From positions 1 through 24,982 of IMG/VR virus record IMGVR_UViG_3300029508_000048: 24,982 nucleotides of DNA; one strand, 5' to 3'. The position numbers and the translations under genes were made by a program. Each line of letters starts with the position of its first letter. The stretch's first letter is position 1. Of the stretch, positions 13,297 to 23,250 are shown one piece after another. Source of the DNA: a virus. Its lineage: Duplodnaviria; Heunggongvirae; Uroviricota; Caudoviricetes. Under the pieces are notes generated by a model, which was not told the DNA's origin, did not search any database, and saw only the letters and a program-made list of their open reading frames with translations.

Positions 13297-13914
13297 TTAC
13301 CAGTTAAAAATTGATGAGCTGCGAATTGCAGGAACATCCGATGGATTTCGTTTAGCAGCTGGTTCCATCAACTTACGCTTGTTAAATGCCTGATCAATAT
13401 AATACTCAGGATTTTTAATAAAGACAGAGTATTTTACCAATGCACAATATACGTCAGAGTCATTATAATGGGGAACTGTTTTTTCATAAACATGATTCTT
13501 TCTAACCAGATAAGGCAAATAATAATCATATCCCCAACCTGGCGTTCTTAGACTTATAGAACATCCGCATGATGGATCTGCACATACTGCAGGAGTAAAC
13601 ACACTATCGTAAATTTCATCTCTGATAACACCAATTAGACCATTATAGTTTTCTCCCCAGAGTGATGCTTGAATTTCAGAGTTTACAAATGGACGATTTT
13701 TGGTTTCCGTTCCAATAAGAACGACAGTAACCGTTGAGTCTTTTAAAAAATCCTCACGAATAGTCCTCATTATTGTTTCATCAGTGTTAGTTGTACTAAT
13801 GTCACCATCACTTACCGACTTATCAATAAACGATTCTCCTCCGAATAAATCAATAATCTCATCTTTGAGATCTTGTTCGTTAGCATGATGATAACTAAGA
13901 AACGTCTTATGCAT
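13297..13914 (-). CDS. TIR-like protein, ThsB-like (DUF1863-type TIR-like domain), candidate NAD-consuming sensor of a defence cassette
   Basis: 205-aa AT-rich ORF. N-terminal KTFLSYHHANEQD, then TVTVVLIGTETKNRPFVNSEIQAS with a Glu near residue 80, resembling remembered ThsB/TIR motifs (F-S-Y-H...D strand, VLIG..T, catalytic E). Start ATG overlaps the upstream stop (TAATG); GGAG RBS. Confidence 0.6.
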   Translation of the reverse strand: MHKTFLSYHHANEQDLKDEIIDLFGGESFIDKSVSDGDISTTNTDETIMRTIREDFLKDSTVTVVLIGTETKNRPFVNSEIQASLWGENYNGLIGVIRDEIYDSVFTPAVCADPSCGCSISLRTPGWGYDYYLPYLVRKNHVYEKTVPHYNDSDVYCALVKYSVFIKNPEYYIDQAFNKRKLMEPAAKRNPSDVPAIRSSSIFNW

Positions 13915-14645
13915 TATTCACTCCATTTATCAACATTTATATCAAACTCTTTGACTACCTTATCATTGAAGAAATCGTTTACTTCTTTAAAACCTTCCAA
14001 TACTTGACTAAAATGATAATAATGCTTTTGTATAGTACTTATAGGGGTTAAATGATACGGCAATGATATAAATTCGCCGTTAGGGTCTCTATCCTTTGTG
14101 GTCACTTTATCATTATCTGAAACATATTTATGCCATCTCCGATAATTATTTTGATGCTTTGTTAAAAAAGAGTTTAACGTTTTCAAAATTTCATTTGAAA
14201 GTAAATACAGTTTTTTATCTCTTTTTTTCTTCACATCTAGTAATTTCATTTCATCTCTAATGAATTTATAGCACTCATAATATGAGTTTAAAACTTCTTC
14301 AATTGAGTCATAATTCGGATCAAATTTAAATAATGTTCGCTTCGTATCCAGATAATTTTTTACGCTCTTTTTAAAAAGAAGATCAGACTTATTTAGTAAA
14401 ATATTAATACCACCAAAACTAAGTTGCTCTAATCTCAATGAATATCTTTGATGAAATGCACCGACCAGCAAGATATAAGCAACTAAAAATAGTATTAATA
14501 CTGATAGAAAAGCACGAATTATGTTTACATTTGACATGAAATTAACTATAAACCACCATTTTTCAAACGGTGAAAACGGAATGCACCCCATGATAATAAG
14601 TAGAAGAACAAAGATACAACCCCATAAAACCCACAATCTGTACAT
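13914..14645 (-). CDS. Membrane protein with two N-terminal TM helices and an unassigned soluble domain of about 180 aa; candidate effector partner of the TIR-like protein
   Basis: Track ORF starts at TTG 14690. Preferred start is ATG 14645 (MYRLWVLWGCIFVLLLIIMGCI...) with AGGA 8 nt upstream. Two hydrophobic helices then a K/N/Y-rich domain. Very AT-rich. Translationally coupled to the downstream TIR-like gene. Confidence 0.65.
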   Translation of the reverse strand: MYRLWVLWGCIFVLLLIIMGCIPFSPFEKWWFIVNFMSNVNIIRAFLSVLILFLVAYILLVGAFHQRYSLRLEQLSFGGINILLNKSDLLFKKSVKNYLDTKRTLFKFDPNYDSIEEVLNSYYECYKFIRDEMKLLDVKKKRDKKLYLLSNEILKTLNSFLTKHQNNYRRWHKYVSDNDKVTTKDRDPNGEFISLPYHLTPISTIQKHYYHFSQVLEGFKEVNDFFNDKVVKEFDINVDKWSE

Positions 14646-14667
14646 AAGAAAGATCCTTTTTCTTTTT

Positions 14668-14695
14668 ATAATACTGCAACTACACCTCAAGTCAA
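14668..14695 (-). promoter_or_regulatory. Sigma70-like promoter of the membrane-protein/TIR-like operon
   Basis: Minus strand TTGACT (plus 14690-14695), 16-bp spacer, TATTAT (plus 14668-14673), about 20 bp upstream of ATG 14645. Confidence 0.45.
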
Positions 14696-14989: not shown

Positions 14990-15667
14990 CTAGAACGTGA
15001 CAGCCTTGTCAAAGCCAGAAATAATTGTATAAGAAATAGACGAGTTATCAGCCTTGTTCACTTTGAACTTGGCACCTTTGTAAGCGATAACATCACTTCC
15101 CTTAGAATCTACAGAAAAATCTGTTGTAAATGCTGCACGAGCCATATCGTTTGCAAATTCACGATAGGTGAACTTCATTACACCGCCTGCATTTCCATTA
15201 TATTCGATAGTCTTAACCAATGAATTACTCACTCGACACAGCCCATCAGGAACACGTTTGATAGAAATTTCTGATGCAGTATAAGAAGTGCCATTTGGCG
15301 GTGATATCTCATTTTTTGCAGCATCGTAACTAACATAATCAACATAGTTACCGATTTGCCCATAGAGATTTTTTAACGCAACAGCTTGAGGGTTATGATA
15401 ATTGCGGTAAATTCCATTCCCCTCACTGCAATATGTACCAGCAGCGATAGAAGACAATGCACCATTAGCCGCACCAAGTTCTAGTACGTCCGTTTTAAAT
15501 CCAGTAGCAGATGTGATAATGGGATCGCCCATGTAGGCGGTAGCACTTTGCCCAATAGCTGGCTTCACCACTTCAATAGCAGTGATATTTCGGTTAGAAG
15601 CATGTGGCACGCAACCAGTTAGGATTACAGCAAGAGATATTGGTAACGCTACATTATTAATTTTCAT
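14990..15667 (-). CDS. Lipoprotein of unknown function (cargo gene in the cos-proximal right-arm region; candidate surface/exclusion factor)
   Basis: Start at ATG 15667 gives MKINNVALPISLAVILTGC, a signal peptide with lipobox L-T-G-C. Mature part is Gly/Ser/Asn/Tyr-rich. GC lower than the backbone by eye. Confidence 0.7.
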   Translation of the reverse strand: MKINNVALPISLAVILTGCVPHASNRNITAIEVVKPAIGQSATAYMGDPIITSATGFKTDVLELGAANGALSSIAAGTYCSEGNGIYRNYHNPQAVALKNLYGQIGNYVDYVSYDAAKNEISPPNGTSYTASEISIKRVPDGLCRVSNSLVKTIEYNGNAGGVMKFTYREFANDMARAAFTTDFSVDSKGSDVIAYKGAKFKVNKADNSSISYTIISGFDKAVTF

Positions 15668-15690
15668 TTTTAGCCTATTATTCTTTTCTT

Positions 15691-15726
15691 GACAAAAAAC
15701 AAGGCGATATCTGATTGACATCGCCT
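15691..15726 (-). terminator. Putative terminator after the DinI-like gene
   Basis: Minus strand AGGCGAT-(11 nt)-ATCGCCT hairpin followed by TGTTTTTTG. Confidence 0.4.
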
Positions 15727-15780
15727 CTCACTCATATGTAACCCTTTTTGATTAGTAAAAACAAGCGTCTATTGACAAAA

Positions 15781-16014
15781 TCAATGCAGCCAGCTGTCGT
15801 CTTCCCACACCTTCTGCAAAATTTTCATCACTTGTTTTCTTTCTTCGTCCAGTTGCAGTCCGGTCAGTTCCACACCGTTAGAGCTACCTTTACGGATACG
15901 GATTACCGTTTTGGGATACAGGGGGCGCAGATTGCGGTAAAGCTCGGATTCAAGGGCGTCCAGGGTAGACTGGCTAATCTTCTGCTCTTTATCGATCATT
16001 ATTTCAATGCGCAT
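15781..16014 (-). CDS. dinI: DinI-like protein (DinI family; C-terminal-domain equivalent of a 186 Tum-type antirepressor)
   Basis: Start ATG 16014 with GAGGTG upstream. MRIEIMIDKEQ...LDALESELYRNLRPLYPKTVIRIRKGSSNGVELTG...ILQKVWEDDSWL matches the remembered DinI pattern (MRIEVTIAK...VSVRY...ILQETWE). Confidence 0.8.
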   Translation of the reverse strand: MRIEIMIDKEQKISQSTLDALESELYRNLRPLYPKTVIRIRKGSSNGVELTGLQLDEERKQVMKILQKVWEDDSWLH

Positions 16015-16024
16015 AAAAGTCACC

Positions 16025-16213
16025 TCAGCTGATGACATCCATTGAGCGGTTGTATTCGTGGCTTCTGATTTTTGCCATGAGTTCATCTGTCAGTTCAGAA
16101 ACCCACTGCAGAGCCAGCCCCTTCTCTTCATCACTACACTCACTAGCCGCTACAAGCTTAAGAAAAAAATCAATGCGCTGGAGCTTCAAAGACTCCAAAA
16201 AATAGTCCTGCAT
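16025..16213 (-). CDS. Small acidic protein, first gene of the LexA-controlled operon (possible N-terminal part of a Tum-like antirepressor)
   Basis: 62-aa ORF with ATG at 16213 and a strong AGGAGG RBS; ends 11 nt before the DinI-like start in another frame. Confidence 0.55.
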   Translation of the reverse strand: MQDYFLESLKLQRIDFFLKLVAASECSDEEKGLALQWVSELTDELMAKIRSHEYNRSMDVIS

Positions 16214-16253
16214 CTTTCCTCCTATGACACCAAAGCAATACTGTATACATAAC

Positions 16254-16273
16254 CACTGTTTATATTTACAGTA
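16254..16273. promoter_or_regulatory. LexA (SOS) box overlapping the promoter of the 62-aa/DinI-like operon
   Basis: CACTGTTTATATTTACAGTA fits CTGT-N8-ACAG (about 16 of 20 to TACTGTATATATATACAGTA). Overlaps a -10 TATACT (plus 16270-16275) with -35 TTTACA (plus 16291-16296). Confidence 0.6.
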
Positions 16274-16365
16274 TATAATAATCTTACTGATGTAAAACGT
16301 TTTTTTACGCTCATCAGCCTGATATGCCTGGTATTATTAAGAGCACGAATTGTTAACCCGCGTAA

Positions 16366-16722
16366 TTAATACAGGTTTCGCCACTTATCATCTTCCTGCA
16401 AACGCTGGTTCCGATAGAAGATACGCAGGCCTGCTCCTGACGGAATACTGCCGCCGCGAAGCAGTAAATCGACCTCTTTCTCGCTGCCATCAAATCCCCT
16501 TGACTTCAGTTCATACACGAGCTGCAGTCGCTGATGGTCTGTAATTCGCTGTTTGTAGTCTTTACGACGTTTCGGTTTAACCAGGCGTAACCTTGCTACC
16601 AGTTCCCGGCACTCTTTTTTGCTCAGACTGTGCAGGTATTCGTGCAACTCTTTGTCATCCATGCGGGTGATATCCGTTCTGGTATCTCCATCAGCTGATT
16701 TGTTTTTCTCCTGTTGGTTCAA
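16366..16722 (-). CDS. Hypothetical basic protein downstream of A
   Basis: 118-aa ORF (TTG at 16722, or ATG at 16662); Lys/Arg-rich, plausible composition; function unknown. Confidence 0.45.
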
Positions 16723-16730
16723 ATTTTCAG

Positions 16731-16815
16731 CAAGGGGACAGTTATTGCCACGAGTCCAAGGGGACAGTTATTGCCACGAGTCCAAGGGGACAGTTATTGC
16801 CACGAGTCCAAGGGG
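16731..16815. repeat. Tandem direct repeat, 3 copies of 26 bp plus a partial fourth, at the 3' end of gene A
   Basis: CAAGGGGACAGTTATTGCCACGAGTC at 16731-16756, 16757-16782, 16783-16808, then CAAGGGG at 16809-16815. Confidence 0.9.
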
Positions 16816-18859
16816 CGCAAGCGCCCTGGTCGGCTGCCGCCTCCTGAACGTCAACGGCCTTACGGGCCTTTTTCCACTTCATCGCGTGCGTGCAAATCTT
16901 GCCCTCTATAATCGGGGACCAGATGCCATAGATACGGATACCGTGATCGCCGTAAGCGCTCGGTTCGTCGTTAAGCTCATAAGCCGTGCGGACAAGGTGA
17001 TGTTTGCGGGGAACCAGTACACCGCCCTGCTTCATGATGTAAGTGGCAAAGCAACCCGCATCTGCAGCTGCCAGTACCGCATCCAGACGCGGATTATCCA
17101 GTACCGGTGCACCCGCTTTGCGTTCGCCCTGCACTCTCGCCGCCTGACCAGCCAGCAAGCGCAGCTCACGGTATGCCTGACGCCCCGGGATACCAAAGAA
17201 ACGGAATTGCTGGACACGGTGCAGTGACGCCCAGGCACAGACATGCTCGGCGCTGTCACGCAATGATCTGCCGGTTTCTTTGCTGATTTCTTTAGCCAGC
17301 CCGCGCCCGTCGATGTTCTTACTGATGTATTTGGCGATGTAGCTGGTCGGTGTACCCTTGCGCGGGTTGATTAGCTCGGACTTGAAGCGCGGGCCGGTAT
17401 TGGTGCCCAGTTCCTCGCGGTCTTCACGGATGGCGAACTTACGCAGCAGCGCGGTGATGGAACGACGGTCTTTTTTGCGCATAAAGCACAGAAGATGCCA
17501 GTGCACGGTGCCGTCATGGTGCGGCTCTGCAACGCGGACGCCGTACCAGCGCAATCCGGCCTTGTGCATGGCCTTGCGGAAAGCGGCGAACGTATCAACC
17601 AGATAATCACTGCTCTGCCGGACAGTGGCACTGGTCCACTTCGGATTAGGTCTGCCGTTGTTGAGGGTTGCGTGGAAGCGTGACGGGCAGGTGATGGTAT
17701 AGAACACCGCGCAGTCTCCGCGCATTTCCGCTATCAGTTCCAGCCCCTTAACACAGGTCATCATTTCATTACGGCGGTGTGCCGGGTTACTGTTGCTGGC
17801 GTTCACTACATCTTCCATGTCCAGCGTGTCGCCGTCTTCATTGACCAGCTCATGCGAGCGGAAGAACTCCAACGATTTGCGACGCTGCTCGCGTTTGTGT
17901 ATCACGGCTTCATAACTGACATACGGGGACGCTTTCTTGTTGACCAGACAGACGGCGCGCATCTGCTCCTCCCGCCACTCGCAGCGCATCTGCCACAATT
18001 TGCGATACCACCAGTCCGCGCACAGCATGCGCGCCAGCGACGGTGGGATCAGTTCATAAGGCACTGGCTTGCGACGGCGCTTTTTGCGGCGCAACTTCTC
18101 AAAGGCAGGCGGAATGACCTCAAGGCGCATGGCTTCTGCAGCAACCCTTTCCCACGCCTGGCGGATTTCTTCTGGTTTAACATCGTCACTGACAAACAGA
18201 TCACCGCAAGCCGCATCAAGACACATGCTCATATGTGCCGCAACCAGCGTGGAAAGGCGCTTGACCTGATCCTGATTCATTTCAGGAAGTACCAGCAATC
18301 CCTCCAGCCCGTCCTGGCTCGCCATGAATCGGAAAGATGCAGACACCTGGCTGTCACGCACTCGCTCCAGCCGCTCAAAACAAGGCCTGATTGTTTCGCG
18401 CAGATAACGGGAATAAGCTTTAGCCCTGCCTAGGCTATTGAAGTATTTAATCCGCTCTAACAGAGGCTTGCTGATATGGGCAGGCATGGCGCTTACATCG
18501 GCAATAATCACCAAATCGGGATTAACGCGCTGCTGCTCGCGGGCCATTCTGGCATGGCTAATCAGCCGATCCTGCTCTATTTCACGCTGGACAGGATCGC
18601 GGGATTCATTGAAGAAATAACGTTCCCACACCTCATCACTCAGCGCCTCACGGCGCAGATGCTCCTGCTCGTTATCTGCAGCGTACAGAGTGATGAGGTT
18701 TGAAAGCGCAGACTCAGGCGCAAATTCCGCCGGGTCCAAATACGGGTTAACCGCTTTTTTTGGGGTATTCCATGGAAAGGCCACGGCGGTCACAATCGGA
18801 CCGCCTTTATCTTTTAGTAGCTCAGACATCACTGGAAGACTCCAAAGCTCACAAAGCAC
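16742..18859 (-). CDS. A: Replication initiation protein A (rolling-circle endonuclease, P2/186 gpA-like)
   Basis: 705-aa ORF containing the YIAKYISK active-site tyrosine motif typical of gpA/phiX174-A initiators. True start may be a few codons in (MSELLKDKG). Confidence 0.9.
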
Positions 18860-21196: not shown

Positions 21197-21321
21197 GATG
21201 CAACATTCCTCGTTTAGCAATGATTAATCAGGATGAATACTGATCGTTTGTATTTTGTGAACACGATAAACATACGATCACATCATGAAATCGTCAAGAT
21301 AAAAGTTCACCTGGAGTGACC
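21197..21321. promoter_or_regulatory. Immunity switch region between the apl/cox-like gene and cI
   Basis: 125-bp AT-rich intergenic region between divergent regulator genes; 7-bp inverted repeat TGATCGT (21241-21247) / ACGATCA (21274-21280). Confidence 0.5.
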
Positions 21322-21888
21322 ATGAATTTGGAAAAAGGCGGCCGTGGTGCCATAGAGCGTATGGTTGAAGCCTATGGCTTCAAGACAAGACAAGCTTTGT
21401 GCGACCATTTAGGGATTTCAAAGAGTACTTTGGCGACACGCTATATGCGCGACTCCTTCCCTGCGGAATGGGTTATTCAGTGCGCCTTAGAGACAGGTAC
21501 GTCATTGAGCTGGCTGACTAATGGCTACGGAATCAAAGAGGGTTCACAAAATGAAAACACCAAAGAACTTCCGCTAAAAATTCTCTATGATGGTGAACTT
21601 TGTCCTGAAGGGTCTTATGTTTTTGATGTAAATTTTCTACCTAAAGCTCTAAAAAATCCGATGGTTGTTGTTGTTGATAGTTCCAAATACATTTGTGATA
21701 TTGATTATGATGATGTCCGTGATGGAAAATGGATTGTTAATATTGATGGTGAAATATCAATGAGAACAATTACACGCTTGCCTGGCAGGCGCCTTCATGT
21801 GGAAGGTGGTATATCTCCTTTCGAATGCGCGTTAGAAGATATAATAATGATCGCAAAAATCGTGATGGCATGTCTTGAATATAAATAA
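21322..21888 (+). CDS. cI: CI immunity repressor (186 CI-type)
   Basis: ATG 21322 with GGAG 5 nt upstream (track starts at GTG 21316). N-terminal HTH-like region (LCDHLGISKSTLATRYMRDSFPAEW), C-terminal domain, about 190 aa as recalled for 186 CI. Confidence 0.8.
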   Translation: MNLEKGGRGAIERMVEAYGFKTRQALCDHLGISKSTLATRYMRDSFPAEWVIQCALETGTSLSWLTNGYGIKEGSQNENTKELPLKILYDGELCPEGSYVFDVNFLPKALKNPMVVVVDSSKYICDIDYDDVRDGKWIVNIDGEISMRTITRLPGRRLHVEGGISPFECALEDIIMIAKIVMACLEYK

Positions 21889-21934: not shown

Positions 21935-23191
21935 ATGGATGAATGTATAGTCGAGATGTTATTAATAGTGAATAAAGATACTTCCTTTGGACGCTCTCCG
22001 TCAGCCTATAAAAAAATAATTGAGGCCAGTGAGGAAGTCATATTTTCACCAAAAGAATTAAAATTCAAAGAACAGTCATTTAAATATGATATATCAGAAT
22101 ATGGAAGCAATAAAGAAACTATCTCTGTAAAATTAACACTAAACGACGTTAGTGAAGATAATTTAATCACTTTCTCAAGATTAACCAGACTCTTCAAAAA
22201 AATATCTAGCGAAAGTAATTTAGGTAGCACTCAAATTATTTGGGATGATATAAGCAAATATTACTCAATTCAGGCTTATCCATTAATCCATGAAATTGAA
22301 AACTTAATGAGAAAATTAATAACAAAATTCATGATACATAACGTTGGATTGTCTTGGACAAAAGATTCAGTGCCGAAGGAATTTTCAGAAGCATTGAAAA
22401 AATCCGAAAAAAACACAGAATATAATGAACATAATTTAATGTATCAAGTTGACTTTATTGAACTTTCTGACTTTATATTCAAATCTTACCGAGAGATTGA
22501 AATAACAGATTTGATCCGAAAATTAACCCCGCTTGAATTTAAAGACATTAATGCTGATATATTCTCAGAATTGAAAAAAATCGTTCCCAGAACAAACTGG
22601 GAAAAATTCTTTGAGTCAAACATCGAAGCAAATGCTGACACTATAATAAAAAATTGGAGTATTTTATATCGACTCAGATGCAAAGTTGCTCATAATAGAG
22701 ATTTTACTAAACAAGATCTTGATGAAGTAATTCGCCTTACAAATACACTGAGTCCAATACTAAAAAAAGCAATTGAAAAAACCGAGACTCTGACTATTGA
22801 TCCGAAGGAAAAAGAAGAATTAACATCCCAGTTTGAGAATGAGTTTTCTAACAATACTAAAAGTGATGAAGAATTATTCAAAGACAGAGTGCTTGAATTA
22901 TATCTACAAATAAGACATTTATATCAACTTACACATTCAAACAGTGAAAATATTAATAGCTATTACAAAGTAATACAAACAACATTCCAAAATGTTTTGC
23001 ATGACGAAAAGTTCAATGCCGAAGACGTAATGAATTTAATTAATATCTCAACTAATGATGATGTTCTGAGAAAATGTGATAATTTCGAGATACATGATTT
23101 AATGAATATTTGCCATTCTATTAAAGAACTTGTTAATTTTAAAATATCAAGTTTTGAAGCTGGGTCAAATGAAGCAGTTAAAAATGAATGA
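21935..23191 (+). CDS. Hypothetical 418-aa protein inside the lysogenic cI-int operon; candidate abortive-infection/defence protein with an Rx4-6H (HEPN-like) motif
   Basis: Very AT-rich ORF with GAGGAG RBS; motif ILYRLRCKVAHNRDF near the middle; no TM segments; followed by a terminator. Confidence 0.7.
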   Translation: MDECIVEMLLIVNKDTSFGRSPSAYKKIIEASEEVIFSPKELKFKEQSFKYDISEYGSNKETISVKLTLNDVSEDNLITFSRLTRLFKKISSESNLGSTQIIWDDISKYYSIQAYPLIHEIENLMRKLITKFMIHNVGLSWTKDSVPKEFSEALKKSEKNTEYNEHNLMYQVDFIELSDFIFKSYREIEITDLIRKLTPLEFKDINADIFSELKKIVPRTNWEKFFESNIEANADTIIKNWSILYRLRCKVAHNRDFTKQDLDEVIRLTNTLSPILKKAIEKTETLTIDPKEKEELTSQFENEFSNNTKSDEELFKDRVLELYLQIRHLYQLTHSNSENINSYYKVIQTTFQNVLHDEKFNAEDVMNLINISTNDDVLRKCDNFEIHDLMNICHSIKELVNFKISSFEAGSNEAVKNE

Positions 23192-23250
23192 TAATGTTTT
23201 ATCTAATAGTTATCAAACATTGACCACTGTTCAAACATACAGTTAAATTT

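Follow-up and report, generated by a model that had tools for sequence, protein, structure and literature searches.

A predicted LexA-controlled tumA-tumB operon in a Fels-2-like prophage of the P2/186 family

Introduction

Phage 186 carries a gene, tum, whose product inhibits the immunity repressor CI and which is transcribed from the LexA-regulated p95 promoter (PMC7708051). Tum binds CI and thereby blocks its binding to operators (PMC3121763, PMC7708051). It is a single polypeptide of 146 aa, in which an N-terminal module and a DinI-like C-terminal half are joined by a linker of approximately 25 residues; this agrees with the first-pass annotation of the DNA studied here, which had described Tum as a protein of about 146 aa with a DinI-like C-terminal part. 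The DinI module of 186 is also made separately, from an internal AAGGAGG-GTG start, and the 186 record annotates this truncated Tum as "modulates SOS induction".

In Fels-2 of Salmonella Typhimurium LT2, tum is described as divided into two parts by a stop codon (Lemire et al. 2011, PMC3121763, with reference to Bunny et al. 2002), and the same paper describes a split tum for PSP3. That the upstream gene of PSP3 is an antirepressor is a personal communication of G. Christie, cited second-hand in PMC3121763. The PsP3 GenBank record names the two genes tumA ("similar to 5' end 186 tum; UV induction of prophage") and tumB ("similar to dinI and 3' end of 186 tum"). The dinI-gfoA/gftA modules of Gifsy-1/2/3 are also LexA-controlled and combine a DinI homologue with a small antirepressor directed against a non-cleavable repressor (PMC3121763). 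In these lambdoid prophages, however, dinI comes first, and both the antirepressors and the repressors are of other families.

Here we analyse a 24,982-nt stretch of viral DNA (the window), in which the first-pass annotation had pointed out a LexA-box-controlled pair of ORFs as a possible split tum. We read the region, with a probability of about 0.88, as the SOS operon in a Fels-2-like prophage of the P2/186 family. Two cistrons, tumA (ORF1) and tumB (ORF2), carry the function of Tum in this operon, which would act by the induction mechanism set out in the last section. This is the tumA-tumB arrangement of Fels-2 and PsP3 and is as such already known. LexA repression, the binding of CI by TumA and the modulator role of TumB are taken by analogy from published work on 186, PsP3 and Fels-2, and are worded accordingly below.

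The region has approximately 97% nucleotide identity to that of the Fels-2 pair STM2728/STM2726.1, and Fels-2 has the same gene order: gpA, LexA box, 62-aa ORF, DinI-family ORF, 243-aa ORF. The Fels-2 62-aa ORF has 96.8% protein identity to ORF1. PsP3 also has its two genes behind a LexA box after gene A, and its tumB is a close homologue of ORF2; however, its tumA and tumB share a frame and are separated by 3 nt, whereas the two genes of the window are in different frames and 10 nt apart. With 186 the window shares the genomic position, the geometry of LexA box and promoter, and the two modules and their order, the difference being that the modules are separate genes.

The predicted SOS promoter

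Minus-strand features are given 5' to 3', i.e., with descending coordinates. The LexA box, TACTGTAAATATAAACAGTG (plus strand, CACTGTTTATATTTACAGTA), occupies 16273..16254 on the minus strand. It has a perfect CTGT-N8-ACAG core and three mismatches to the 20-mer consensus, and it is the sole match in the window at three or fewer mismatches, where 0 are expected (100 shuffles). Its first hexamer, TACTGT (16273..16268), is a putative -10, and a putative -35, TTTACA (16296..16291, minus strand), precedes it with a spacer of 17 nt. The annotated LexA-repressed p95 of 186 has a like geometry (TTCACA-18-TACTGT, with the box beginning at the -10), so by analogy we place a p95-like SOS promoter at TTTACA-17-TACTGT, with TTTACA as the equivalent of the p95 element. 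A generic sigma-70 promoter scan made no call at this putative tumA promoter, because its -10 fits the consensus at only three of six positions (i.e., it is weak). The near-consensus LexA box overlapping a -10, as reported in the first-pass annotation, is therefore present and unique in the window, with the promoter itself deduced from 186 p95. A promoter overlapped by a LexA box is what one looks for in front of a Tum-type antirepressor gene, and it is found here on the basis of the predicted box.

For comparison we used 33 species-level loci from different Enterobacterales species, which were found with the single ORF1 protein. A CTG-N10-CAG motif lies no more than 120 nt 5' of the ORF1 homologue in 31 of these. 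The box is likewise present in all the phage relatives that we examined, namely 186, PsP3, ESSI-2, ESSI2_ev015 and Yersinia phage YenM_06.16-2. The distance from box to ATG is approximately 58–67 nt in the Fels-2 group versus 36–46 nt in 186, PsP3, ESSI-2 and the Yersinia phage.

Two further sites in the window resemble LexA boxes. Directly 3' of the box, between it and the ribosome-binding site (RBS) of ORF1, the minus strand reads ATGTATACAGTA at 16239-16250; this is LexA half-site-like and could be the remnant of a second box. The CTGT-N8-ACAG core also recurs at 23227-23242 (CTGTTCAAACATACAG), between the integrase gene and a 418-aa ORF. This second match is probably due to chance, because approximately 0.4 such matches are expected at random per window and the site differs from the full 20-mer consensus at more than three positions.

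The upstream gene

ORF1 (16213..16025, minus strand) encodes 62 aa and ends with a TGA at 16027..16025; a Shine-Dalgarno sequence, AGGAGG (16223..16218, minus strand), lies 4 nt 5' of its ATG. Both the ORF and its RBS had been listed in the first-pass annotation. Existing resources say little about the protein: PHROGs places it in phrog_698 (5.9e-38), which is labelled "unknown function", Pfam and NCBIfam hold no family that matches it, and RefSeq labels it "hypothetical protein" in E. coli (ORF2 is labelled "DinI family protein"). In direct BLASTP, ORF1 and 186 Tum did not align. The labels and the negative pairwise search would suit a different reading, in which ORF1 is an unrelated small SOS-induced protein and no antirepressor, the prophage is induced in some other way, and the operon modulates the host SOS response via its DinI-like protein.

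Because BLASTP gave no alignment, we tested the relation between ORF1 and Tum with profiles. An exhaustive search for the ORF1 family returned 67 protein clusters, from which we built an alignment of 28 diverse members (consensus M.DLF.ES..LQRI.L..RLVA...CS..DKELAL.W..ELT.EL.). When this was compared by hhalign with an alignment of 186-type Tum N-termini, the probability was 96.1% and the E-value 3.7e-9, and the alignment was gapless, placing ORF1 residues 2-44 on Tum residues 2-44. Intermediate sequences lead to the same place. For example, family member P0279, which is 48% identical to ORF1, aligns by plain BLASTP to 186 Tum residues 1-41 (37% identity, E 6e-9), and in tblastn full-length 186 Tum aligns colinearly over the ORF1 and ORF2 genes of phage MLG42 (84% identity between the MLG42 and window ORF1). 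The homology is thus established through profiles and intermediate sequences, since the pairwise search was negative, and ORF1 is, as judged from these sequence comparisons, a diverged remote homologue of the 186 Tum N-domain, with only approximately 19% identity to it. This bears out the proposal that ORF1 is a Tum homologue; the alignment with 186 Tum, which the first-pass annotation had suggested as a check, did not reveal an unrelated protein lacking Tum N-terminal homology.

PsP3 TumA (60 aa) is very divergent from ORF1. Its hhalign match to the ORF1 family is weak (E 0.004, probability 8.6%), and only a core of the form C-x6-[LI]-A-L-x-[LW]-[IV]-[AS]-[ED]-[LI] aligns.

AlphaFold2 models ORF1 as a hairpin of two helices (residues 2-23 and 28-61) at pLDDT 88, and the turn contains the conserved Cys. 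Foldseek with this model returned only generic helical hairpins (best E 0.83), and the ORF1 family profile matched nothing among PDB sequences. Across the 33 loci, the median pairwise dN/dS of ORF1 is 0.073, compared with 1.26 and 1.99 in the other two frames, which indicates strong purifying selection.

The window also encodes the presumed target of TumA. A 186-type CI immunity repressor lies at 21316..21888 on the plus strand (35% identity over 173 aa to 186 CI, E 1e-39; it also matches PHROG transcriptional repressor families). A CI of this type has no LexA-like cleavage domain, so an antirepressor is needed. By analogy with 186, ORF1 would be that antirepressor of the prophage CI. Against ORF1 being an unrelated protein stand the presence of this CI, the profile match to the Tum N-domain, which extends over the entire conserved core, the position of ORF1 after gpA and a LexA-box promoter (as for tum), and the retention of ORF1 where the DinI gene has been lost. 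A further point is that a lexA-null mutation is reportedly lethal in Salmonella because of Fels-2, as the title of a 2002 paper by Bunny, Liu and Roth has it. We therefore regard the unrelated-protein reading as unlikely and treat ORF1 as the tumA homologue in what follows.

The downstream gene and the operon end

ORF2 (16014..15781 including the stop, minus strand) encodes a DinI-family protein of 77 aa, the tumB homologue. Its own Shine-Dalgarno sequence, GAGGTGA (16026..16020, minus strand), overlaps the TGA of ORF1 and lies 5 nt 5' of the ORF2 ATG. ORF2 matches Pfam DinI (PF06183) over profile positions 1-63 of 63, with E 4.6e-23 and 81.8 bits (cut-off 24.2). As had been claimed, it is a DinI-like ORF 3' of the 62-aa ORF and in a different frame, namely +1 relative to ORF1. 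It also qualifies as a homologue of the Tum C-terminal part, with 43% identity to 186 Tum residues 71-145 (E 1e-24), and it falls on positions 71-148 of 151 in phrog_189. The internal AAGGAGG-GTG start of 186 lies exactly at the residue where ORF2 begins. On the host DinI equivalog NCBIfam NF007893, ORF2 scores 44.1 bits, below the cut-off of 111. These matches identify it by sequence as a phage DinI-like paralogue of the TumB type, not as chromosomal dinI.

A terminator-like hairpin with a T-run lies at 15727..15701 (minus strand), where an 11-pair stem is followed by GTTTTTTGTC, and it would close the tumA-tumB operon. In 186, the partial terminator t95a lies directly 3' of tum according to the 186 record. 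The hairpin of the window is probably an intrinsic terminator and the positional equivalent of t95a.

Next to this terminator, on its 3' side, is the 243-aa ORF (14990-15721, minus strand; 243 aa as counted from its first ATG), which belongs to phrog_1353 ("unknown function"). It resembles 186 orf97, the gene 3' of tum, in position and length, but it is not homologous to it (BLASTP E 4.5), and we ruled out that assignment. When read from the RefSeq start (ATG 15667), the protein begins MKINNVALPISLAVILTGC, which resembles a lipoprotein signal peptide with a lipobox. A promoter-like site of its own lies at 15695..15666, and the ORF is a candidate cargo ("moron") gene.

The junction between the two genes

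The first-pass annotation left two cases for the split tum, two genes or a frameshift, and they differ in what happens at the junction. The ORF1 stop is separated from the ORF2 ATG by 10 nt (given there as 11, a trivial correction). A fused tum could have been broken by a frameshift mutation, or could appear so through a sequencing or assembly indel, in which case ORF1 and ORF2 would be a non-functional pseudogene pair. The +1 offset of ORF2 and the combined span of approximately 144 codons, near the 146 aa of 186 Tum, are what such a break would leave behind. A sequencing indel is ruled out because a 701-bp region that includes the junction is 100% identical in three independently sequenced complete E. 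coli genomes. Pseudogene decay is contradicted by how widespread and how well kept the pair is: the region occurs in 1125 of 5426 complete E. coli genomes (approximately 21%), ORF1 is intact with 62 codons plus a stop in 32 of the 33 species-level loci at a dN/dS of 0.07, and ORF2 has an RBS and ATG of its own. In addition, a fusion to a DinI domain occurs in none of the 67 protein clusters of the ORF1 family, and the split is common to PsP3 and Fels-2. We consider a broken pseudogene exceedingly improbable.

A programmed +1 frameshift or stop readthrough is a second way in which the junction could yield fused Tum, in this case besides the two separate products. The precedent is 186, where one gene gives both full-length Tum and a truncated DinI-only product. 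Recoding, however, needs a conserved frame together with a slippery or stop context, and in the related loci these vary. The stop of ORF1 is TGA, TAA or TAG, and where the DinI gene is present it begins after a spacer of 9, 10, 11 or 12 nt, which puts ORF2 in any of the three frames relative to ORF1. Despite this variation in spacer length, there is always a purine-rich RBS 5' of the second ATG. Thirteen of the 33 loci have no DinI gene at all. As for the junction hairpin, its stability does not exceed that of shuffled sequence (z = -0.38), and it is unconserved in relatives. In short, the conserved frame, slippery sequence and stimulatory structure of a recoding site are lacking, while the features of a split tumA/tumB (two cistrons, a stop, and an own RBS and start for the second) are in place. 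Recoding at this junction is very unlikely.

That same hairpin (16036..16019), which contains the ORF1 stop and the ORF2 RBS and came up in the terminator scan, was also considered as a translational-coupling or attenuator element. We dropped it because of its z-score against shuffles and because the junction sequence is unconserved.

ORF1 and ORF2 are thus predicted to be independently translated cistrons of a normal bicistronic operon. The two-gene branch of the first-pass proposal holds, and the frameshift branch fails on the variable frames and stops, the separate RBS and the missing fusions.

The prophage and its hosts

The 701-bp region is 97-98% identical to Fels-2, RE2010 and a large group of Klebsiella P2-like prophages. 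The host of the window prophage is most likely E. coli, because the 100% matches are in E. coli chromosomes.

The operon lies just 3' of gene A in a P2/186-family prophage with a 186-type CI, i.e., in the setting expected of tum. The P2/186-type replication gene A (gpA; 18859..16742, minus strand) is upstream of the LexA box. Other genes of the window match PHROGs families for a Cox/Apl-like excisionase, a CII-like activator and an integrase, the first two being adjacent to CI.

The gpA gene of the window differs from that of Fels-2 in having two additional copies of a 26-bp repeat, and its frame is broken. The repeat is a perfect tandem, CAAGGGGACAGTTATTGCCACGAGTC, with 3.3 copies at 16731-16815 on the minus strand, at the end of the gpA ORF. 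Fels-2 gpA is 52 nt shorter at the repeat (equal to two 26-bp copies). In the window, these additional 52 nt put the gene out of frame and leave a 705-aa A ORF and a separate 118-aa ORF (16722..16366). In Fels-2 (809 aa) and E. coli EC361 (804 aa), gpA is one continuous gene, and the top E. coli matches span 209 nt at the repeat versus 261 nt, i.e., they carry the short allele. The difference may reflect a polymorphism in repeat copy number, with truncation of A as its result, or an artefact of assembly. A truncated A may still work, since the A proteins of 186 and PsP3 are only approximately 700 aa. Nevertheless, because the window copy of gpA carries this frame break, the prophage may be partly defective even with a working switch.

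Two other ORFs, of 418 aa (21935-23191, plus strand, between cI and int) and of 258 aa (13914-14690, minus strand, beyond the SOS operon), match no PHROG at E <= 0.001. Their positions are typical of prophage cargo or defence genes. In the related prophage of E. coli EC361, a hypothetical protein and a HIRAN-domain protein are found beyond the lipoprotein gene.

A possible modular organisation of Tum

Across the comparative data, the DinI module comes in several states while the LexA box and the N-domain stay. Besides the 13 species-level loci without a DinI gene, approximately four more have a disrupted one: in loci L010, L021, L024 and L038, tumB is truncated or frameshifted 3' of an intact tumA. 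This damage to tumB beside intact tumA in several species suggests relaxed selection on tumB relative to tumA. ESSI-2, ESSI2_ev015 and Yersinia vB_YenM_06.16-2 have a LexA box and a stand-alone ORF1/Tum N-domain gene without DinI. There are also many 186-type "Tum protein" genes, of 63 and 67 aa, close relatives of the 186 N-domain, which follow gpA and a 186-type LexA box and have no DinI gene next to them. A stand-alone N-domain behind a LexA box fits the N-domain being the antirepressor.

The modular pattern itself is visible in these data, and because the DinI module is variously absent, adjacent or fused, the conserved core is the LexA box plus the N-domain. At even odds, we would say that the LexA-controlled N-domain (TumA) is the universal, self-sufficient core of Tum and that DinI is an optional addition, with the fusion in 186 being derived and its AAGGAGG-GTG start being the retained signal of an old intercistronic junction. 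One possibility for the role of TumB is that it tunes RecA* activity, either to set the timing of induction or to disturb RecA-dependent prophages resident in the same cell. We found no explicit statement of the modular pattern in the literature that we searched, and we regard it as a modest extension of what is known, not a discovery.

Proposed mechanism and significance

By analogy with 186 and its relatives, the switch would work as follows. In an uninduced cell, host LexA would sit on the box overlapping the -10 and keep the operon off. DNA damage would lead to self-cleavage of LexA, and the operon would be transcribed. TumA, as a 62-aa helical hairpin, would then bind the 186-type CI and keep it off its operators, so the early lytic promoter would be derepressed and the prophage induced. 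TumB, DinI-like and made from its own RBS, would be an accessory modulator of the SOS/induction response, probably via RecA filaments, and would be dispensable for antirepression.

The value of this result is mainly in annotation: a 62-aa "hypothetical protein" (phrog_698) can be given an identity as a TumA antirepressor homologue. ORF1 is the likely SOS induction trigger of a prophage that is present in approximately one-fifth of complete E. coli genomes and also in Klebsiella and Salmonella. The TumA identity predicts that SOS induction of such prophages would proceed via an antirepressor, not via cleavage of the repressor. Lysogens would, on the same grounds, be expected to suffer from the toxicity of lexA-null alleles, as is reported for Fels-2.
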